A stretch of 64,000 bases of DNA. Source: Shigella phage MK-13. Location of the stretch: the sequence record MK509462; one strand, 5' to 3'. The position numbers and the translations under genes were made by a program. This document shows positions 4,775 to 34,259 of the stretch, one piece after another; position 1 is the first letter of the stretch, and each line of letters starts with the position of its first letter. The notes beneath the pieces are model-generated. The model had not been told where the DNA came from, searched no databases, and worked only from the letters and a program-made list of their open reading frames with translations.

Positions 4775-6337
4775 TTACTTGTACAGGCCAGTGACGTCAA
4801 TAGACTTGTGCTGGCGGTTGTACTCAGCAGTGTAGTCATCCAACACCAGGTATTCGCAGCAGCGGATTTTACTGGAGCCATAATCGTTGGTGATAGACAC
4901 GATATCTTTCGGGTTCAGCTTACAGCGAACAACGCGCTGGCCAACAGAACCGAAACACTGTTTCAGGTAGGCCAGGGAGCACACATGCAGACCGTATGAA
5001 CACAGGTCGGAGTTGTTGTCGTTCACGAATGAGCGAGCCATGCGCACGATAGTGCCTGGTGCGTTGCTGATCGTGTTGCTGTGTTTGTCCATGTAGTTGC
5101 CGCGCACCGATTTGTAGAGGATGATGTCACCATCGTCGTCAATTTCGATGTCGGAGTACGCCATGAACTCATAGATGCGCCCAGACTGAACCAGAGCAGC
5201 CGACGGGTTCTGGAACATTTTGTCCATAAACTTCGCCATGCGGTCCAGGTTGTGGAAGTCACCCTTCAGCATCAGCGCCAGTACACGCTTGGCGATGGAT
5301 GTGCCTGTGATGTCATGGCCAGACCAGCGGACACGGTTGTCAGACACGTCTACCAGACCTTCAGCGTACTTCGCGATGGCATCACGAGGGCGCATCAGCG
5401 AGTATGCCAGCTTCACGTCTTTGTCTTTGATCGCCTGTACGATGCGGTCATATGCTGGATGTGAAGTGGTGATCGTTTCCGGCTTGCCGTCAATTGCGAT
5501 AACAACGCTGTCAGGCAGAATCAGGATCTGGTGTTCGTTCAGGAACACGTCCAGGTCTTTCGCGCCGAAGTCCTGCTTGGTCTTCTTGTCATCAGCCACT
5601 TCTTCAACTTCTTTGATAGCGACAGCGAATTCCACAGAAGACAGAGCCAGGCGCAGGGTGCGGCCGAGGATGGCATCGAAGTAACCAACACGACGACGGG
5701 CATCCAAGGATCCACGAATAGGATAGGTTTCCCCGTCAACCACAACGCTGATTTCAACGTTGCTCGGAACTTTATCCGCACCTTCTGACAGCGCCACAGA
5801 AATTTCTGCCATCTTACCGATAGCTTCAACGCCGAAAGCGCGGCTGTTTCCTTCAACAGGAGTCAGTTCGGATTTTTCAAAGAAAGCCCCTTTGAAATTG
5901 CCGTCGTTAGTGAGACACAGATACTTGTTGTGGTTCGGTAGATATGCCCCAACATACCATTCTGAGTCATCTTTGTCTTTGGCCGTGCCGCCCGGTTGCA
6001 CCTCGAACACTTCCTGCTCTTCCTGCTTGATAGGAGAGATCACAGTTACCTTGTTTTCCTCCTCAGTAATCCGGACCAGCAGAGCGCGAGCAATGGTCTT
6101 GGCGCTTACAGCAAAGAACTCAGCCAGGGCGCGGTTGCTTTCGCCAGCCTTGCTCTTCACCTGAATCTGCTGAATCTCTTCAGTGGTCAGAGATTTCAGC
6201 GATAACGGGTTAACACCGAGTTCCGTGTCTGCAACACGTTGTACAGTCGAGCGGGGTATGCCCAACAGAGTGGCAATTGCGCTCTGGCTCATGCCTGCCT
6301 TCAAATGCTTGAGGATCTTTTCGTCAATCTTGTTCAT
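4775..6337 (-). CDS. rIIB: rIIB-like protein
   Basis: ATG at 6337 (ORF-track start 6424 is TTG); N-terminal HTH-like segment MSQSAIATLLGIPRSTVQRV; C-terminus ...GLHVCSLAYLKQCFG...RVVRCKLNPKDIVSI..DY...KIRCCEY resembles rIIB as recalled; lies directly downstream of rIIA as in T4. Confidence 0.65.
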   Translation of the reverse strand: MNKIDEKILKHLKAGMSQSAIATLLGIPRSTVQRVADTELGVNPLSLKSLTTEEIQQIQVKSKAGESNRALAEFFAVSAKTIARALLVRITEEENKVTVISPIKQEEQEVFEVQPGGTAKDKDDSEWYVGAYLPNHNKYLCLTNDGNFKGAFFEKSELTPVEGNSRAFGVEAIGKMAEISVALSEGADKVPSNVEISVVVDGETYPIRGSLDARRRVGYFDAILGRTLRLALSSVEFAVAIKEVEEVADDKKTKQDFGAKDLDVFLNEHQILILPDSVVIAIDGKPETITTSHPAYDRIVQAIKDKDVKLAYSLMRPRDAIAKYAEGLVDVSDNRVRWSGHDITGTSIAKRVLALMLKGDFHNLDRMAKFMDKMFQNPSAALVQSGRIYEFMAYSDIEIDDDGDIILYKSVRGNYMDKHSNTISNAPGTIVRMARSFVNDNNSDLCSYGLHVCSLAYLKQCFGSVGQRVVRCKLNPKDIVSITNDYGSSKIRCCEYLVLDDYTAEYNRQHKSIDVTGLYK

Positions 6338-26594: not shown

Positions 26595-27113
26595 TTAGAT
26601 GGTGCTCATGTAGAGAGGAACCACCTGCTCTGCGATCAGAACGATCTCATTAATGGTGAAGTCGCCACCATAAGAATACAGCTTCATCTGCGCCCCGTTG
26701 GTTGCGAGGTTCCCTGCCTTGTCAACACTGAAGAACGTGATAAAGGAGAGAACGTCTGGGGGCGGTACGCTGGAATCTCGACTCTTAGACAATTGGTTGC
26801 CTGTAGAGCCAACAAAGTCCAGCAACATCGTCCTGTTGGATGTCGAACCAGACCATGTTCCGATGATGTTCACCTTGACAGGCAAGATAGAATCGACCGG
26901 AAATGCATGGAACTTATGGTCGGACAATTTGAAGAAAGGGGCTAACCCAGTCACAGACGAAGGATGCGGTGTTTTACCGTCCAACAACGTTAAGAGATCA
27001 ACACCAGTCGCTCCAGCAGGCAAAGCCGCTGTGAGGCCAGAGAACCTCACTTCAACTTTGATGCGGTGCGTCTGGAGCATATTGCCCAGGTAAGGAGAAG
27101 GTAGAATGGCCAT
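26595..27113 (-). CDS. hypothetical protein (172 aa)
   Basis: Minus-strand ORF. Confidence 0.55.
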   Translation of the reverse strand: MAILPSPYLGNMLQTHRIKVEVRFSGLTAALPAGATGVDLLTLLDGKTPHPSSVTGLAPFFKLSDHKFHAFPVDSILPVKVNIIGTWSGSTSNRTMLLDFVGSTGNQLSKSRDSSVPPPDVLSFITFFSVDKAGNLATNGAQMKLYSYGGDFTINEIVLIAEQVVPLYMSTI

Positions 27114-27121
27114 GGCTCCTC

Positions 27122-27376
27122 CTAGGAAACGATAACAGAGGAAGCAGAAGACGCGCTCTTAACCCACCCAACAGTCGGCGGGGTGAGCACAACGATATTA
27201 CCTTGATAGAGAGTATGAGCCGGAGAGGAAGCACTCGGCGTGGTTGGACTATCACACAAATACACAGAACCTTGAGTCACTTGTATTGTTTTCAATGATG
27301 TGCCATCTGAGACTTGCGTCCATGTACTTGCATCCAGAGTAAACTTGGCTGTTGCCATGATACACCTCCTGTACAA
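27122..27376 (-). CDS. hypothetical protein (about 78-84 aa)
   Basis: Minus-strand ORF. Confidence 0.4.
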   Translation of the reverse strand: MYRRCIMATAKFTLDASTWTQVSDGTSLKTIQVTQGSVYLCDSPTTPSASSPAHTLYQGNIVVLTPPTVGWVKSASSASSVIVS

Positions 27377-27786
27377 GTTCAGATCTATTTATACCGGACA
27401 AAAGAAAGCCGGATATCCTTATCCGGCTATACCACATCGATGGGATGGGTGGAAAGACTACACACTTTGCACTGGTACTGCCCTATGGGAGAGCGCGTCA
27501 GGAGTCGAACCTGAAGTCGTCGGCGTAGAGAAAGCTATTTGCATTTCACTATCCTCGCCGCGATTTTCTTAACTTCCTAAACACCCGATTACGAGAGAGT
27601 CGGCATGCACACCTTCTAACTCTTCAGGAAGTCACGCCCACAATTTGGTGCCCGTTAGAGGGGTTGAACCTCAGCACTCTGGTGATCAACCCAGAGAGTC
27701 GCGCCTCATCCGTTTGTTAGTCAGATTTGGGTCTTGCAAAACCTTAACCGACCGTCTACAAACAGACTGCTTGACCGAGCGTAATT

Positions 27787-27870
27787 TGGAGCGGGAGAGC
27801 AGGATTCGAACCTGTCCAGTGATCGTCGCCGATGATCAGTCGGCTACTGTCCAACCCCTATGGCTCCCGC
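27787..27870 (-). tRNA. tRNA-like gene, near-canonical (tentative anticodon GAT)
   Basis: Perfect 7-bp acceptor GCGGGAG/CTCCCGC plus T and CCA, T-loop TTCGAAT, 5-bp anticodon stem GCCGA/TCGGC; one extra nucleotide at the T-stem/acceptor junction and a D-stem mismatch. Confidence 0.45.
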
Positions 27871-28093
27871 GAAATAAGGACGGGCTTCACACCCGATTGA
27901 GCATTTGATCTGCCGTAGCCCAACTCCCCGCGCTTCTCAGCGCCGATTGGTTAACTGGCGACCAGTGCCTTCTGGTTCGATCTCCTGGAACTTTACAGGC
28001 TTTGCGCCCGACCATTTCTGGAAGTTGGGGCATCGTTTCCGATGTGGAGTCACCCCATTTTATACACAGCGTGGCTGCAACGCTTACTGTGTT

Positions 28094-28177
28094 TGGTGTG
28101 AGTGGATGGATTCGAACCACCGCGCTGTTACGGGGAGATTTACAGTCTCCTGCATTCGACCGCTCTGCCACACTCAC
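28094..28177 (-). tRNA. tRNA-Tyr (anticodon GTA), type II with long variable arm
   Basis: Acceptor GTGAGTG/CACTCAC + A + CCA; anticodon stem GGAGA/TCTCC with loop CTGTAAA; T-arm GGTGG-TTCGAAT-CCATC; 84 nt. Confidence 0.75.
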
Positions 28178-28434
28178 ATTTGGTCTACCGCTGCGTGCTG
28201 GGCCACGCTCGAGGACATCGGCCATCCTTCCTCAGCTAATCCACGCAGCGGCAGATTTGTTTCAGAGTGTCCGGTGTAGCAACCCGTGAGGTGCGCACTA
28301 CTGTAGCCTCTACACTCTGAATTTGGTGGGCGTTACTATCGTCGTCTTCGGATTCCGTTCGGCTATTGGACAGAGGCTTGGAGCTTGTCGGTCGCGTACT
28401 TCGTGCCTATTCACTTTCGTTCACACCCATTGTC

Positions 28435-28510
28435 TGGCGACGATGACAGGACTTGAACCTGTGACATATGGATTAACAGTCCACCGTTCTACCGACTGAA
28501 CTACATCGTC
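28435..28510 (-). tRNA. tRNA-Asn (anticodon GTT)
   Basis: Full cloverleaf: acceptor GACGATG/CATCGTC, D-arm GTTC-AGTCGGTA-GAAC, anticodon stem GTGGA/TCCAT with loop CTGTTAA, T-arm ACAGG-TTCAAGT-CCTGT, discriminator G, CCA; 76 nt. Confidence 0.9.
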
Positions 28511-28511
28511 T

Positions 28512-28736
28512 TTATCCGTGCTTGTTCGCTTCAATCGCCCTTAATTGGGCATCAGCGTCAGCTTTGGTGTCATGTGTACCAAGAACCTTCGTCTTGGTGT
28601 GGTCAAGGACAACCCACTTGTCACCTCGCTTTTCAACAAACTCGACAATCTCTTTGTTGTCGGTAGCGAGGCCATCCCACTCAGCAATAAAATCACCGAA
28701 CGTTTTCATCATACTCACCAATTGTTTATTGAACAA
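28512..28736 (-). CDS. hypothetical protein (74 aa)
   Basis: Clean minus-strand ORF ending 2 nt before tRNA-Asn. Confidence 0.5.
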   Translation of the reverse strand: MFNKQLVSMMKTFGDFIAEWDGLATDNKEIVEFVEKRGDKWVVLDHTKTKVLGTHDTKADADAQLRAIEANKHG

Positions 28737-28938
28737 CTGGTTTATTTAGGTGCTCCCAAGGCGGTATTTGAATCCCGCGATCCCATCACACCTGCCGTAG
28801 ACCGGAGCTTGCTGGCAGTCCAACAATGTTTGGCGGGGTTTGAGGATTTTCACCTCACCTGCTGGGTTTGGCCGCCCAGCCGTTCTCTATGAGGATTCGC
28901 TGTCCGGACAACTATCCCTTAAACTATCGCCCCTCAAT

Positions 28939-29018
28939 TTGGTTGGAGGAGAAGGATTCGAACCTTCAACGGCTGCCGCCATCCCCTCAGGGAATGTCTA
29001 CCCCTTCCATCATCCTCC
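28939..29018 (-). tRNA. tRNA gene, isotype unresolved (tentative anticodon TGA)
   Basis: Perfect acceptor TGGAGGA/TCCTCCA + A + CCA and T-arm GAAGG-TTCGAAT-CCTTC; D-arm and anticodon-arm register could not be resolved by hand. Confidence 0.55.
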
Positions 29019-30538
29019 AAATTATTGTGTGACCAACCAAGGACTGTCAACCCTTTATCCCGTTTGTGCATGATCAGTTCATGCAGGCCTGTTTGTGCGC
29101 CTCACAGCATGCGCTTCTGTTGGTCATTGGCTTGCACCGTAGCCTCGCAACAGGCGTTTATTTTTCCAGGGCTTTCCACTTGCAAGTCTTAACCATACAG
29201 GGATACGGGCTTGCAAGATCGGGTTGGTCACAACTCTGATGGCTCTCGCCTTTCCGCTCATTTACCTGTCATCCACAACCGATATACATTATGGAATCTT
29301 GAGAGCCATCAGAGTTGCAGCCATGCTACAACCCGCACCTGGGAGAGGACAAGGTGATCGACCCCAGATACTTGCCTGCTTTCGCCAGGCCAAACGGTTT
29401 AGCGTCGGGTGCCTCCCGATGCCATTATCATGGCGAATAATGGCGTTGACTTATCCTCAGGTGGTTCTTGCCACTCAACCCTTGCGCTTAGCAGGATTCA
29501 CTAAACAACCCGCACTTCAGTGTCTTCGTCACACTTCAGCACTTGTCCTCTAACGTTCAGACCAAACGAGGCTGGCCGATAGCAAACTTGTTCTCTGGTA
29601 TTTTGTGACCCGCCAGAACGGTATGGGTTGATAGCCCGAACTCAGTTTGTATCGTAGAGTGATCACACTTGTCAGGATGATCACTATTTTGCGAACTCGA
29701 GAATACTGCACCTGTCTCGGGTTTCCCCTTAGTACGGTCACTCATTGTTCGAAGCAGTCAGGGAGCTACCCTTGATGACCGCGCTTATCTTGAGCTGTTC
29801 CTGGTGCCCACCAGTGTCCGGAATGTATAGGCATCGCAGCTTTACAAGGCAATGGTCTATTTCACCCATCGCTCTCCCAAGTTCGCAAAGTAGAGTTCTC
29901 TGAACTTCAATGACCCCTCATCTTGTACTATCGCCGCCGGGAACGTTCACCATGTGAATCAACCCTTGGGTTAAGTTCAACGTCCAGAGGACTCTACTTT
30001 GCGTTGTGGGGGCTGACCCCCACACGGCTACTTCTTTAACAGGGATTGCCAGCCCTGGGGATTCCACTGTTTAAGGCTTCATCCCATAACGCCTTAGGCG
30101 TGTTCTCAAATTATTGAGCTTGCTTAACTGCAAACTGATGCGCTGTGAGACACATCTTTGAGGGCACTCAGTGTGCAACAGGCTCCGATATTTCATAGGG
30201 CATTACTGCCTCGGATTTGAGTTGCCTTTCTCCTGAAACTCCATGCAGTCTCGCGTCTGACGCGGAATGCCCTCAAAGATGTGGAGCCGCTTTAGGGAGT
30301 CGAACCCAAGTGATTGGCCAGCGCTGACCTCACACCCCACCTGATATGTTCACCGGAACTTGCCTACTCAGGAGCTTATCCCCTTTTGACAATCAGGTAT
30401 AGCGGCATTGTAAATCTGTTTGGGCGGAGGCCTGTAACCAGCAGGCATCTCCTAGCGAACTTCTGAACACCAGGCTCGGGTGCGCCTGTCGCTGTGGTGA
30501 GTTCGACTTAACTCCTGAGCGGTTATTCCCAGTCGTCG

Positions 30539-30628
30539 ACACCCCCCAAACAGATTTTAGTCGGCGGGAGCTTATTAATCACACCCCCCAAACAGATTTT
30601 AGTCGGCGGGAGCTTATTAATCACACCC
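30539..30628. repeat. 42-bp tandem direct repeat, 2 copies plus a partial third
   Basis: acaccccccaaacagattttagtcggcgggagcttattaatc at 30539-30580 and 30581-30622, then acaccc; GGCGGGAG/CTCCCGCC inverted repeat at 30605-30612/30628-30635. Confidence 0.85.
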
Positions 30629-31357
30629 TCCCGCCTATTGTAGTGCGCCGAATTTTGTTATGAGGAGTCGGAAGACCTCACTGACTTATAGGCTATTACG
30701 CCGCCATCAGAACTACATCATCGTTTGCATTTATTTTTGTGGTCTGTTTCTTAAAACCCGCAAAGTCACGCACAACGAAAACGAAAACCTGTTTGAGCAC
30801 AAGACGCCATGTCCTGGGTTCACATCGAAGTGTTTGTCTAATGCCCAAACAGCTTTTCGTTCAATGGGTTAACTATACTCTGCAACCCGTTATTGACAAA
30901 ACTTTAAATCTGCCGGAACTTACGCATCCGGCCTCGCCTGTTGGTGCTCCTTCGAATCCGGGAAGATCAGCAGGAACTATGAATCAAGTTAATTCAACCA
31001 ACAGGAACCTTTGTGTTGCCCTTTGACGCAACATTATGAACCCTCTGTGAAGATCCATAATGTTGTCGGCGTGATGGAACCTGGCAGATCCGTCCTCCCC
31101 TATATGTTGGTGTCGACTTGCCAACGGGGTGCTCTCAAGCATCTGAGCTAATCACGCTACAACAGGGAGTTTCGTTCTCCGACGGTCAGTGCGTCCACTA
31201 ACACCATGCAAGGTGGATGTCACGCCTCTATTCACGCATGCCCCTGAGACTGGGATTAGTGAGGTCGGCTTTAGATGCCTAACTCAATGCGCTGTTCGCC
31301 TCACGTTTAATACTTTACCACAGCCCAGCTAATTTGAAAAGTCCTCTCCTCTTTGAG

Positions 31358-31504
31358 TTACACTGCCCACAGCAGTGCGGACGAACCTTCACTCAAAACC
31401 GGATGCACCGAAGTGGGCGACTGTTTACCGGACTGATCGGGTAGACCCAGGAGAGTAAAGGTAATCCCGATCAGGAGGATGAGGAGTAACATCATGTAAA
31501 ACAT
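31358..31504 (-). CDS. small hydrophobic protein (48 aa; not in the ORF track)
   Basis: Minus-strand ATG preceded by a strong SD GAAGGGAGGGAA; translation MFYMMLLLILLIGITFTLLGLPDQSGKQ... Confidence 0.4.
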   Translation of the reverse strand: MFYMMLLLILLIGITFTLLGLPDQSGKQSPTSVHPVLSEGSSALLWAV

Positions 31505-31561
31505 AGTGTTCCCTCCCTTCCATGCAACTAACTTTACTGCAATTCTTTATTGAATAAAGCG

Positions 31562-32131
31562 TTATTTTACCACTTTTAACTTCACATCACGCTCGAGCAG
31601 ATACACATATTCACGGGCGGCTGCGAGCGACATATAATGGGTGGATGGGGTGCTGTGTTTGTTCAGCGTCTCTTTTAATTCAACTCGCTCAGCCCACCCA
31701 TTGATGGAGGTGCCGTAGAAGCCGATGATAGCAGCGAAATAAATGCGTTGAGTTTCCGGCTCCAGGATGTAGTTCACGGTGAAGCAAACTTCAGAGCGAA
31801 TGCCAGAAGGTTTGATACCAATACGAAAATATGGCATCTCATTGCTAACACACAAATGGCGAAAACGATCACGACGGGCTTGTGTTGACTCCGTAAGTTC
31901 TTTACGCAGATGTATATCGTCGATGTTAAAAGAGAATGTGTTGTTGCTCTTTAGATCTGATTTAGCCAGGTCGATAGCAGAAGGAAGGACACGGCGGAAA
32001 TTGACTTCTTTCTTTGTCAAGCGTTTTGTCTCAGAAGTGATCCACACGAAATCGATATCTTGTACTTTCTTTCCTTCATATTTTTCCAACAAGGGAATGA
32101 TGTGTTTTAATACGGCAGTGTTGATGTGCAT
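31562..32131 (-). CDS. hypothetical protein (189 aa)
   Basis: Minus-strand ORF; palindrome CTTTATTGAATAAAG immediately downstream. Confidence 0.6.
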   Translation of the reverse strand: MHINTAVLKHIIPLLEKYEGKKVQDIDFVWITSETKRLTKKEVNFRRVLPSAIDLAKSDLKSNNTFSFNIDDIHLRKELTESTQARRDRFRHLCVSNEMPYFRIGIKPSGIRSEVCFTVNYILEPETQRIYFAAIIGFYGTSINGWAERVELKETLNKHSTPSTHYMSLAAAREYVYLLERDVKLKVVK

Positions 32132-32430
32132 GAGAGGTTCCTTAATATAGGGTTGATTGACCGGACTATTATATTTGGAAAGGTGTTATTGAATTAAAGG
32201 CCAACAAAATAGGAGTGCGGTTTATTAATAGGCAAAAACTACTTTTCTACAACACTCAGAGACTGTATCTTACTGTGGTGCCCTTTGAGTTGTGAGTGAT
32301 AACGAACAACGAAAAGCAGCCTCCATGGCTGTGGAATGGGACTGCCTGTCAAGGCGGTGTTACGAGCGTAGCGAGTAGGTTAATACTAATCGAGTAATAT
32401 AACGCGCGAGGAAGATTCAATCCCATCCCG

Positions 32431-32438
32431 CTAAATAT
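32431..32438 (+). promoter_or_regulatory. late-promoter-like motif CTAAATAT
   Basis: Variant of the T4 late promoter TATAAATA, about 40 nt upstream of the gp6-like start. Confidence 0.3.
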
Positions 32439-32477
32439 CTTCAACACCATATTCAAGTTCAGGTGATGGAGATAAAC

Positions 32478-34259
32478 ATGGCCACACAAACAGTTCCTTC
32501 ACTCGATGTCAGGGCTTTCGAGTATCTTATCAAGAAGCGCATGAAAGCTGATCCAACTTTCAAGGATTATGACTTTGAAGGTTCTGGTCTCAGTGCAATC
32601 GTGCGTATCTTGGCCTCGGATGCCAACTCTATCGGGTTCATGCAGAACATGCTGAATGGCGAAAGCCATCTTCACTCTGCCCAACAGCGTTCTAATGTCG
32701 GTCTGGCGGCGGGGTTCTTGTCTTACACCCCTCACAACCACCAGGCGGCGTTCCTGTACGCAAACGTCACAGTCACTCCATATGACGCCAGCACGGCTCC
32801 AGACACGATTGTAATGGACCGCCGGGCGATGTTCATTGGAGCGAAGGATGGCAAATCCTACAACTTCACGGTTGACCAACCTGTGAGCGCCTCTCTTGTA
32901 GACGGCTCTTACAAGTTCGAGAACATCAAACTCGTACAGGGCAACTGGCTGTACAAGTCCTATGACGTGGAAGGCAGCGCGATCTCTACCTATGTGATCC
33001 CATCTTCTTCCGTGGACATCAACCACATGGTGGTGCAGGTGCAGGAATCTGAGACCTCCGACGTGCGGTCTACCTTCTCACGATATGTCAGCCCGTTCGA
33101 TTTGAGCCAGTATGCACAACTCTACTTCGTTGAGCTGGGGTTGGACGGGATGTACACGTTTGAATTCGGCGACGGTTATATCTGCAAGCGAGTAGAAGAC
33201 GGCAACGTCGTGTATCTTCAGTATCTGGAGACCTCTGGTGCAGACGGCAATGACATCACTGCCTTGTCCTCTGCGTCTTCCATCGGGGGCTTCAACCTTG
33301 TAGATGTTGAGCTGGTGTCAGAACGTTCTTCCGGCGGTACAGACCCAGAGAGCATTGAAGACATCAAGCGCCTTGCTCCGCTGGCTTATCAGGCTGAGGG
33401 TGCGGCGGTAGCCGAAGTCGATTATGCTGTGTTGACTGAGCGCCTGTTCTCCAACGTCTCCCGCGCCAAAGCATATGGTGGAGACACGCTATCTCCGCCC
33501 GACTCTGGATACGTTTACATTGCTGTAGTACCTTCTGTTGGTGAGACGCTGTCGGACGCTGAGAAGGCAGATATCGTGGCGACTTTGGACAAGTACAATG
33601 TGGGTACGATTACACCCAAGATTGTCGACGCCGAACTGACTTATGTTGATGTCACCACCCGCGTGTTTTGGGATCCGACTTCCACGGCCTACACCGAAGA
33701 GCAGTTGAAGACAGTCGTAAAGAACGGTGTTGTCAACTGGGGCTTGGGGAACCTGGAAGGATTCGACGAACTGTTCGATAAAGAGCAGTTGCAGTCGGCC
33801 ATCACCGACATGGACAGATCGATAGCGTCAAACATCGCTTCCGTGAAGTACAAGCGCCACTTCAAGCCGGACTATGGGGTACTAGACAGCTTCACGTTCG
33901 ATTATGGGCGCTCGATTGCATCTGGTTCTGTGCGTATCAGTGGGTTTAAGCCGCTTCCGGCCGAGGTCGACTTCACTTACTACATGCGCGATGTCAGTGG
34001 TGTCCTGAATATGTACAAGGTGAGTACAGCAGACACGACCAAAGAATATCTGGTACAAGCTGTTGGAACGGTTGATTATGTGAATGGCGTTGTTGAACTC
34101 CAGCGCATCACAGTATCCAACTACAACACCGAGGGAGTGACTATCATCGTGTCCCCAGACGGTCTTGACCAGAACATTCAGGCCACACAAAACCAGGTGC
34201 TTCGCATCGGTGCTGTAACTGTGGAGCCGGAGGTGCGTTATGTCCAAAGATCTCAATAA
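32478..34259 (+). CDS. baseplate wedge protein (T4 gp6-like)
   Basis: ATG at 32478 with GGAG SD (ORF-track start is GTG); N-terminal FKDYDFEGSGLSAIVRILASD resembles the gp6 N-terminus as recalled. Confidence 0.6.
   Translation: MATQTVPSLDVRAFEYLIKKRMKADPTFKDYDFEGSGLSAIVRILASDANSIGFMQNMLNGESHLHSAQQRSNVGLAAGFLSYTPHNHQAAFLYANVTVTPYDASTAPDTIVMDRRAMFIGAKDGKSYNFTVDQPVSASLVDGSYKFENIKLVQGNWLYKSYDVEGSAISTYVIPSSSVDINHMVVQVQESETSDVRSTFSRYVSPFDLSQYAQLYFVELGLDGMYTFEFGDGYICKRVEDGNVVYLQYLETSGADGNDITALSSASSIGGFNLVDVELVSERSSGGTDPESIEDIKRLAPLAYQAEGAAVAEVDYAVLTERLFSNVSRAKAYGGDTLSPPDSGYVYIAVVPSVGETLSDAEKADIVATLDKYNVGTITPKIVDAELTYVDVTTRVFWDPTSTAYTEEQLKTVVKNGVVNWGLGNLEGFDELFDKEQLQSAITDMDRSIASNIASVKYKRHFKPDYGVLDSFTFDYGRSIASGSVRISGFKPLPAEVDFTYYMRDVSGVLNMYKVSTADTTKEYLVQAVGTVDYVNGVVELQRITVSNYNTEGVTIIVSPDGLDQNIQATQNQVLRIGAVTVEPEVRYVQRSQ

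Follow-up and report, generated by a model that had tools for sequence, protein, structure and literature searches.

A tmRNA-like tag-template RNA without its own tRNA-like domain in the RNA gene island of Shigella phage MK-13

Introduction

Positions 27377-31560 of a 64,000-nucleotide stretch of Shigella phage MK-13 (sequence record MK509462; the whole stretch is referred to here as the window) had been singled out, in a sequence-only reading, as an island poor in open reading frames (ORFs). The question raised by this locus is whether the island is a decayed gene or an array of RNA genes and, if the latter, which RNAs it encodes. The comparative analyses described here identify within it, on the minus strand, an RNA of ~190 nt (30790-30601), here called the tag RNA, that resembles part of transfer-messenger RNA (tmRNA). 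The sequence evidence shows the tag RNA to be a conserved and structured RNA, found in several phage families, with a tag frame whose evolution resembles that of translated sequence. The reading favoured here, at a probability of roughly one half, is that the island is an RNA array that includes a tmRNA-derived tag template, which would need a tRNA-like partner in trans, possibly the host tmRNA.

Coding potential of the island

The island has 97% identity to Shigella phage Ag3 (Agtrevirus, Ackermannviridae), and a megablast search matched parts of it to 304 phage records. It is bordered on one side by a conserved minus-strand gene (31562-32131, phrog_3788) and on the other side by minus-strand genes ending at 27376; plus-strand baseplate genes start at 32463. 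The reported scarcity of ORFs is real: the longest in 27377-31560 are 109-124 aa, have TTG or ATG starts and overlap tRNAs or hairpins, and a Pfam search of the small island ORFs gave no match.

The locus was compared with 20 loci from Agtrevirus, Kuttervirus, Taipeivirus, Limestonevirus, Miltonvirus and Nezavisimistyvirus. In all 20, the equivalent stretch is 2-4 kb long, ORF-poor, and either unannotated or supplied only with 30-70-aa "hypothetical" calls; no intact gene lies across the counterpart of 29040-30540. The island is a mosaic, with blocks that are present in some relatives and absent from others, close ones included. Variable sites showed no codon phase in seven sub-regions of 29020-31350 (p 0.12-0.73), while the same test on two flanking genes, used as controls, gave p=7e-10 and 3e-25. 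Because codon periodicity is absent in the relatives and several modules carry compensatory base changes, 29020-31350 is not a decayed gene but a non-coding RNA array.

The unclassified structured RNA proposed by the sequence-only reading is therefore present, and its covariation was confirmed in related phages. Of the two small ORFs that it had judged credible, 28512-28736 is coding (third-position excess, p=6e-6); 31358-31504 has only a phrog_8415 match and too few variable sites. Its statement that 29040-30540 holds neither a plausible ORF nor a tRNA stands as far as codon phase is concerned, but the stretch does contain a covariation-supported tRNA-like RNA ending in CCA (30285-30410). Overall, that reading was incomplete rather than wrong, having overlooked this gene and the tag RNA.

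A tag-template RNA resembling half of a tmRNA

The tag RNA and its parts, all on the minus strand, are as follows.

30790-30601, minus strand: tmRNA-like tag-template RNA, ~190 nt (covariance model R1, 165.5 bits, E 1e-41)
30789-30781, minus strand: 5' motif GGTTTTCGT
30767-30735, minus strand: hairpin
30728-30726, minus strand: resume codon GCA
30728-30699, minus strand: tag ANDDVVLMAA
30698-30696, minus strand: stop codon
30710-30707 with 30684-30681, minus strand: helix CTGA/TCAG, enclosing the stop codon
30680-30676 with 30665-30661, minus strand: pseudoknot stem 1
30671-30668 with 30651-30648, minus strand: pseudoknot stem 2
30635-30605, minus strand: 3' hairpin, loop GGTGTGATTAATAAG

On the minus strand, the frame reads ...ACAAAAAUAAAU GCA AAC GAU GAU GUA GUU CUG AUG GCG GCG UAA UAG. 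Bacterial tmRNA shares with it a GCA resume codon after an A-rich ...UAAAU, the first 8 nt of the tag frame (GCAAACGA, which match E. coli ssrA), a 10-residue AND...-type tag with a hydrophobic, Ala-rich C-terminus, and a stop-codon helix (H5) followed by an H-type pseudoknot (PK2) with an A-rich linker. Among 26 distinct aligned copies, the resume context (AUAAAU followed by GCA) is invariant. The tag frame occurs in 18 variants in 49 distinct homologues, each of 10 codons and ending in L-[AM]-[AV]-A or similar. Codons 1, 2 and 10 vary only synonymously (GCA/GCT, AAC/AAT and all four GCN, respectively), and TAA, TAG and TGA are all used as the stop at codon 11. The fixed length, the synonymous variation and the three stop codons together are the signature of an apparently translated frame, selected for an ssrA-like degron.

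These patterns bear on an alternative in which the RNA would inhibit or act as a decoy in host trans-translation, by pairing with the host tag region or by soaking up S1, SmpB or RNase R, its own tag remaining untranslated. Such a role would suit an RNA that has no tRNA-like domain and whose 5' motif is complementary to ssrA 96-106 in 52/52 copies (see below), and it has a precedent in the partial tmRNA of the mycobacteriophage DS6A type, which consists of the tRNA-like domain (TLD) only (PMC4131195, PMC11915505). However, a pure RNA mimic would preserve nucleotides rather than amino acids, whereas the tag frame is coding-like in its codon number, synonymous changes and stops, and remains degron-like across the 18 variants. 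Inhibition without translation is thus considered unlikely.

The proposed structure comprises an upstream hairpin, the stop-codon helix, an H-type pseudoknot and a 3' hairpin with the invariant loop UGAUUA. In the 26 distinct copies, 91.5% were paired and 19 pairs changed on both sides, with 0/500 shuffles as good; three helices, the stop-codon helix among them, were recovered independently by RNAalifold. Model R1 gave 52 hits (49 distinct), in which 93.4% of cells pair and 19/31 pairs and 179 cells changed on both sides. For the 49 distinct sequences, too, none of 500 shuffles was as good, and the signal collapsed once partners were slid. The CUGA/UCAG helix around the tag stop is 99.5% paired and changed on both sides at 4/4 pairs; pseudoknot stem 1 covaries at 4/5 pairs and stem 2 (loop CCGA with downstream UCGG), which is 93-99% paired, at 3/4. 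R1 has exactly one copy in the window and one in each Ackermannviridae locus except the two Limestonevirus loci.

Nevertheless, the tag RNA differs from bacterial tmRNA in lacking an acceptor stem, the G3:U70 pair, a T-arm and CCA. A simple, irregular hairpin occupies the position of PK1, and in place of PK3/PK4, which are absent, a single additional hairpin, that with the UGAUUA loop, follows PK2, so that the RNA is ~170-190 nt long compared with 363 for tmRNA. Its similarity to host ssrA is confined to ~32 nt around the resume codon, and E. coli ssrA matches R1 weakly, in the same register. The 3' strand of the terminal hairpin in the window, 30605-30612(-), CTCCCGCC, is also identical to nt 346-353 of E. 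coli ssrA (T-loop/T-stem and start of the acceptor), which could reflect a T-arm remnant or coincidence.

Distribution and genomic context

A sensitive blastn search with a 2.3-kb region retrieved 737 phage records, and outside Ackermannviridae nearly all matches fell on the ~100-170-nt tag RNA piece. A dedicated search found the tag RNA in 744/50,697 phage records (~1.5% of sequenced phages). Its carriers are Ackermannviridae (including Kuttervirus/CBA120-type phages), Felix O1-like and other Ounavirinae, N4-like Schitoviridae, Grimontviridae, T1-like phages, Akiravirus, lambdoid phages and a T5-sized (~110-kb) Klebsiella phage; at least seven phage lineages are spanned, virulent phages included. 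By blastn it was also present in 146/5,426 complete E. coli genomes, including Shiga toxin-producing E. coli (STEC) strains, at prophage late-leader sites and not at ssrA. Its place in HK633 and in E. coli prophages is between Q/pR' and the holin gene; Felix O1-like phages have it within the tRNA cluster, in the same orientation as the tRNAs. Annotations nearly always miss the element or cover it with spurious small ORFs. No earlier description was found in the literature on phage tmRNA-like RNAs, in tmRNA databases and supplements, or in a review of Ackermannviridae, and the literature collection searched contained no paper with any of the six commonest tag peptides. The tag RNA is thus a widespread tmRNA-like tag-template RNA that was previously unrecognised.

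This distribution is difficult to reconcile with evolutionary debris, that is, with functionless tRNA and tmRNA fragments or recombination scars such as an ssrA piece left by an attachment site. Although the island is mosaic among close relatives and does contain degenerate T-arm/CCA fragments, the element has been kept across the lineages listed above with strong compensatory covariation. An ssrA fragment at a host attachment site was rejected as its origin: the blastn hits lie at prophage late leaders, the ~32 nt of ssrA similarity exclude the 3' end that is used for integration, and virulent phages (Ackermannviridae, Felix O1-like) carry the element. Debris is therefore regarded as very improbable.

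The contexts also bear on whether these RNAs act only in cis, as a scaffold that provides RNase P, RNase III or RNase E punctuation, or as a stabiliser or antiterminator for a tRNA or late operon. The island modules are bounded by long stems and tRNA-like structures, lambdoid copies sit in the pR' late leader, and very variable inserts occur within conserved stems, all of which would suit such a scaffold. In several virulent phages, however, the tag RNA has its own promoter, and the same architecture and peptide-coding constraints recur in unrelated contexts, which would be unexpected for punctuation. A purely cis-acting role therefore appears highly unlikely.

Hairpins with conserved stems (GGTAAGAGCATT...AGTGCTCTT) were observed in lambdoid prophage late leaders, where they enclose at least 20 unrelated inner sequences of 26-97 nt (loci L003, L005, L034, L038, L044, L080, L101 and others; the window counterpart is 30151-30283). 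They flank the tag RNA on either side, and the same insert can be upstream in one phage and downstream in another. A few inserts hold a T-arm.

The missing tRNA-like domain

The tag RNA is classed here as a tmRNA-derived variant without a tRNA domain, and not as a tmRNA, because no tRNA-like domain was found and its scores fall below all curated thresholds. ARAGORN reported no tmRNA at default or 85% thresholds, and lowering the thresholds yielded nothing but spurious calls. A permissive Rfam scan returned sub-threshold matches to tmRNA_permuted (30.5 bits, E 3e-4) and alpha_tmRNA at 30644-30846, aligned on the resume/tag region. The best Rfam similarity is to two-piece, circularly permuted tmRNA (RF04321, RF01849, RF01850), which is known from Alpha- and Betaproteobacteria and from marine phages such as Melnitz (PMC9004378). 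Two-piece tmRNA shows that an mRNA-like part can function as a separate RNA paired to a tRNA-like part, and its coding piece is closest to the tag RNA in layout, ending soon after the post-tag pseudoknot. The linker ...AACA(A/G)AA... is likewise common to the tag RNA and to permuted-type tmRNA tag regions on IMG/VR contigs.

Such regions (Alpha-/Betaproteobacteria-like) were retrieved with the 14-mer ATAAATGCAAACGA, examples being ANDNFALEDYALAA and ANDERFLMAA (loci L010, L019, L020, L022, L031, L033, L041, L042 and others). Some of them are directly followed by protein genes.

In contrast to the tag RNA, two-piece genes have an upstream acceptor piece and a coding piece that starts with a 5' acceptor strand (GGGG...). 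What precedes the tag RNA is a promoter in some copies and a hairpin with variable content in others; a conserved acceptor strand is absent. A good sigma70-type promoter stops 7-12 nt short of the 5' motif in the copies from Felix O1-like phages, Akira, Panisse and some prophages, so that in these copies the RNA probably begins directly at the motif, again unlike a two-piece tmRNA. Ackermannviridae have a conserved promoter ~85 nt upstream of the 5' motif and a leader that folds into a hairpin (hairpin A); other prophages have, ahead of the motif, a hairpin that belongs to the conserved-stem class.

The tag RNA could still be the coding piece of a phage two-piece tmRNA, joined by base pairing to an adjacent tRNA-like RNA as acceptor piece. 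Candidates are 30285-30410, a ~127-nt TGTGGTG...CRCCACA element of siphophages and prophages, and a hairpin-embedded tRNA-like element upstream in some phages. Such tmRNAs are known in bacteria and marine phages (PMC9004378), and tRNA-like RNAs with a T-arm and CCA and no anticodon loop do adjoin the tag RNA. The ~127-nt element, as found in prophage locus L005, also matches RF00023, in the tRNA-like domain only (20 bits, E 3e-6 in a small search). However, no partner type accompanies the whole family. Ag3-like phages lack 30285-30410, many prophage copies have no nearby G3:U70 tRNA-like element, and none of the candidates carries this alanine determinant: the neighbours fold as odd tRNA-like molecules without G3:U70 or, in the G3:U70-bearing neighbour of Felix O1-type phages, as a tRNA-Arg(UCU)-like RNA. 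No covarying pairing between RNAs was found either, and a two-piece arrangement within the phage is judged quite unlikely.

The ~127-nt element (L005 2724-2854, also in L003, L047 and L146) has the acceptor TGTGGTG/CRCCACA, a D-arm GCTC...GAGC and a T-arm. In several siphophage and prophage copies it comes after the downstream hairpin.

Several other sources of a tRNA-like domain, and some further pairings, were considered and rejected. A one-piece tmRNA at ~30990-30290 was suggested by a 5' similarity at ~30985 (GCTGATCTTCCCGGATTCGAAGG, compared with the E. coli 5' end), which is in fact a UCUUC/GAAGR hairpin with loop CCGGAUUC within the CCTGTTGG/CCAACAGG domain; the T-arm at 30315-30295 is part of the separate tRNA-like RNA. 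A permuted tRNA-like domain in leader hairpin A was dismissed since no order of T-arm, acceptor and CCA fits. The Felix O1-type neighbour has a 7-nt loop CUUCUAA (anticodon UCU) and a tRNA score of 31.7 bits, and was rejected as an alanine acceptor; it is also absent from other members. A PK1 formed by the 5' motif and AGAAACU is lost in the window and in Kuttervirus sequences, an acceptor-like stem from the flanks of hairpins A and B fails because in the window the stems differ and are self-complementary, and pairing of the conserved loop with 30285-30410 (GUGAUU/AAUCAC) does not covary in Kuttervirus.

Possible decoding with a partner in trans

If the tag is decoded, as its codon patterns suggest, then the tRNA-like domain must come from elsewhere, since the tag RNA has no acceptor stem or T-arm of its own. 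In the favoured reading, the tag RNA retains the mRNA-like half of a tmRNA (AUAAAU before GCA, a 10-codon degron-like tag, stop-codon helix and pseudoknot), and ribosomes would decode the tag in a trans-translation-type event. The tRNA-like domain would be supplied by another molecule, with host tmRNA-SmpB as the leading candidate and a neighbouring phage tRNA-like RNA as the alternative donor. The 5' motif could tether the phage template to host tmRNA and at the same time mask the host template, and the outcome would be phage control over the tagging of stalled-ribosome products during infection.

The proposed tether is the invariant 5' motif (U)AGUUUUCGU (also written (U)AGUUUUCG); apart from the resume region and the terminal loop, no other unpaired segment is universally conserved. 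The motif is complementary to the host tag-coding segment ACGAAAACUA, and forms 8-11 Watson-Crick pairs with E. coli ssrA nt 96-106 (GACGAAAACUA, tag codons 3-6) in every one of the 52 copies. The target 8-mer ACGAAAAC is present in 109/119 Enterobacterales/Orbales tmRNAs, and the 96-106 stretch is predicted to be more open than average. Yersinia is an example of a host with a different tmRNA tag sequence, ANDSQYESAALAA.

A more specific version treats the RNA as a "headless" tmRNA of Enterobacterales phages, whose 5' seed would dock on the tag-coding part of host tmRNA, or on another tRNA-like carrier, so that host rescue appends the phage tag in place of the host tag (ANDENYALAA). The island would then hold further undescribed RNA classes, namely tRNA-like RNAs that end in CCA but lack an anticodon, a ~215-nt module found family-wide, and hairpins in which conserved stems enclose hypervariable inserts. 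This full version is advanced only tentatively and is more doubtful than the general need for a partner.

Several observations weigh against decoding with a partner in trans. No tRNA-like domain is attached to the tag RNA, the R1 hit containing no acceptor stem or T-arm, and when the surroundings were scanned for tRNA-like elements with full acceptor stems, no partner shared by the whole family emerged. The Rfam scores lie under the gathering thresholds (RF04321, 30.5 versus 47; RF01849, 20.3 versus 50; RF00023, 10.5 versus 47). The seed match was noticed post hoc and its significance is modest, the universal 8-mer occurring in shuffled ssrA at a frequency of 0.007 and the 10-mer, which is confined to a subset, at 3.5e-4; its duplex energy was equalled in 32/1,000 shuffles, and the best Kuttervirus duplex falls elsewhere in ssrA. 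Hairpin A of Ackermannviridae pairs the 5' motif with AACGAAAAG, which nearly duplicates the putative target, and the motif may therefore not be free. Tracking of host sequence by the seed was discarded as an argument, because all sampled hosts share ACGAAAAC and the comparison is without power.

Other features of the island

The remaining features of the island are listed below.

27407-27428, minus strand: terminator-like hairpin with T-run, at the downstream end of the island
27491-27559, minus strand: degenerate tRNA-like remnant with T-arm GGTTCGACTCC and ...CCCA end (ARAGORN only at 85% thresholds)
27787-27870, minus strand: aberrant tRNA-like gene (ARAGORN Ile-GAT), 84 nt, with long extra arm and ...U-CCA end; below the Rfam gathering score
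28094-28177, minus strand: tRNA-Tyr(GTA) (ARAGORN; RF00005, 57.3 bits)
28435-28510, minus strand: tRNA-Asn(GTT) (ARAGORN; RF00005, 76.6 bits)
28512-28736, minus strand: small protein gene, 74 aa, function unknown (phrog_3684; codon phase as above)
28940-29019, minus strand: aberrant tRNA-like gene (ARAGORN Ser-TGA) with no normal D-arm and an ACCA end
29050-29021, minus strand: promoter-like TTGACA-18-AATAAT, upstream of the Ser-TGA-like gene
29020-29238, minus strand: ~215-nt multi-helix RNA closed by stem GTGACCAACC/GGTTGGTCAC, kept in 16/20 loci
29231-29317, minus strand: hairpin with perfect 17-bp stem (inverted repeat)
29397-29506, minus strand: module with sub-threshold STnc100 match (33.4 bits; gathering score 47)
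29540-29700, minus strand: structured module with hairpin AGTGATCA...TGATCACT and others (RNAalifold)
29680-29885, minus strand: structured ~200-nt module closed by CGAACTTGGGAGA/TCTCGAGTTCG (RNAalifold)
29884-30003, minus strand: long hairpin with 22-bp outer stem (inverted repeat and fold)
30151-30283, minus strand: hairpin B, outer stem CATCTTTGAGGGCATT/AGTGCCCTCAAAGATG, branched interior (inverted repeat and fold)
30285-30410, minus strand: tRNA-like RNA with acceptor GCCGCU/AGCGGC, T-arm GGGTTCGACTCCC, discriminator U, encoded CCA and no anticodon loop
30412-30599, minus strand: long hairpin E (AAATCTGTTTGGG.../...CCCAAACAGATTT) (inverted repeats)
30539-30628, minus strand: perfect 42-nt tandem repeat (2.1 copies, 100%)
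30780-30861, minus strand: leader hairpin A, 3' arm with motif GGTTTTCGTT paired to AACGAAAAGC (inverted repeat and fold)
30872-30899, minus strand: promoter-like TTGTCA-16-TATAGT, upstream of hairpin A and the tag RNA, conserved in Ackermannviridae
30905-31350, minus strand: conserved non-coding block (RNAalifold, 17 sequences; no codon phase)
31157-31069, minus strand: tRNA-shaped element inside this block, acceptor GCGTGAT/ATCACGC, 10-nt loop CAAGTCGACA
31358-31504, minus strand: possible gene for a 48-aa hydrophobic peptide (phrog_8415, built from related annotations; too few variable sites to judge)

The RNA genes of 27377-31560 are on the minus strand in every case, and the island may be described as a minus-strand non-coding RNA gene cluster of an Agtrevirus-like Ackermannviridae phage that has two or more sigma70-like promoters and closes with a terminator-like hairpin. 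Most modules are closed by long stems, which suggests that they are cut from a long precursor. Long closing stems and tRNA-like elements would divide the island transcript into separate RNAs: two working tRNAs (Tyr and Asn), tRNA-shaped RNAs without normal anticodon arms, folded modules and the one tmRNA-derived RNA.

ARAGORN called four genes, Ile-GAT-like, Tyr-GTA, Asn-GTT and Ser-TGA-like. The Tyr and Asn genes, proposed earlier as canonical, are the only ones to reach the Rfam tRNA gathering score (RF00005), and the two proposed as near-canonical correspond to the Ile- and Ser-like calls, in which the arms are non-standard, the acceptor stems proper and the ends CCA; these and the other tRNA-shaped elements of the island score below it. 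Degenerate T-arm/CCA fragments, which had also been noted, are present. Ag3 (locus L001) has, at ~6097-6172, an extra 67-nt mini tRNA-like gene GGCGAGG...GGTTCGATTCC...CCTCGCCA, inserted at window ~30908; it is missing from the window and is not called by ARAGORN. In Salmonella phage Mushroom (L145, 671-824), GenBank places tRNA-Ile and tRNA-Met on the strand opposite to that of ARAGORN, which is probably an annotation strand error.

The island contains 15 inverted repeats, among them 30151-30174/30260-30283, 29884-29905/29982-30003, 29231-29247/29301-29317 and 30780-30805/30836-30861. The 42-bp tandem repeat is exact, and duplicates the 3' half of the tag RNA's terminal hairpin along with the beginning of hairpin E. 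Among the 20 loci, hairpin E is shared with only one Kuttervirus locus. Hairpin B belongs to the conserved-stem class that flanks the tag RNA in other phages.

RNAalifold supports several modules with compensatory changes. The most widely retained in Ackermannviridae, 29020-29238, has 56 pairs, 13 of them compensatory (12 sequences, several genera). The corresponding figures are 12 of 56 for 29680-29885 (9 sequences), 7 of 49 for 29540-29700 (10 sequences), and 7 of 37 for the tRNA-like RNA 30285-30410 (10 sequences). In hairpin A, the sequence of the inner stem changes among relatives while complementarity stays. Block 30905-31350 additionally holds a hairpin (31065-31029) and the CCTGTTGG/CCAACAGG domain, and in Taipeivirus L006 double changes preserve the acceptor and inner stems of 31157-31069, the D-loop of which carries a 41-nt insertion.

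An Rfam search of 27000-32500 found no ROOL, GOLLD, YrlA, group I intron or similar family, even at E<=10, and apart from tmRNA the sole lead for the structured modules, which Rfam does not recognise, is the sub-threshold STnc100 match. That match shares GUGAAUCC...CGGGAGGCACCCG and could link the module to an enterobacterial small RNA family. GOLLD and ROOL are, like the island, ORF-free, highly structured, phage-associated and tRNA-adjacent, but the island is a string of separate 80-220-nt modules with their own closing stems, which come and go among relatives. The tRNA cluster of phage T4 also embeds stable structured non-tRNA RNAs (species 1 and 2, or rnaC and rnaD), probably released by tRNA-processing enzymes. 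These are not known to carry a tag reading frame.

In L006 (Klebsiella phage 0507-KN2-1) an HNH endonuclease gene (5013-5573) lies between leader hairpin A and the tag RNA, at a site equivalent to window ~30777-30789; both flanking blocks include that stretch (the GTTTTCG region), and the tandem GTTTTCGTTTTCG in the window could be the footprint of an HNH-type insertion. HNH genes interrupt the island in other relatives as well. An unrelated phage, Erwinia phage vB_EamP_Rexella, has a site with 95% identity to the 43 nt at window 29595-29637.

Significance

Ackermannviridae thus contain a sizeable RNA gene array, which goes unmentioned in a 2024 review of the family. For annotation, the tag RNA has been overlooked in phages that are under consideration for therapy and biocontrol; its carriers also include lambdoid prophages of pathogenic E. 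coli.

The phage tmRNAs described to date are either complete genes or consist of only the tRNA-like half (PMC4131195, PMC9004378, PMC11915505), as in mycobacteriophage DS6A and the "no CDS" tmRNAs (PMC4131195, PMC11915505). The tag RNA shares with DS6A a phage-borne partial tmRNA that keeps one functional half, but it is the converse half, since DS6A has kept the tRNA-like domain and lost the tag. tmRNA has so far been viewed as one RNA or as a permuted two-piece RNA, with the halves always together, and a conserved, covarying and apparently translated tag template without the tRNA-like half challenges that view. If docking on host tmRNA is correct, it would amount to a template-swap hijack of trans-translation. 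Either trans-translation may accept a template in trans, or phages may have a dedicated interference with ribosome rescue; both ideas are open to direct testing in E. coli and Salmonella with existing genetics.

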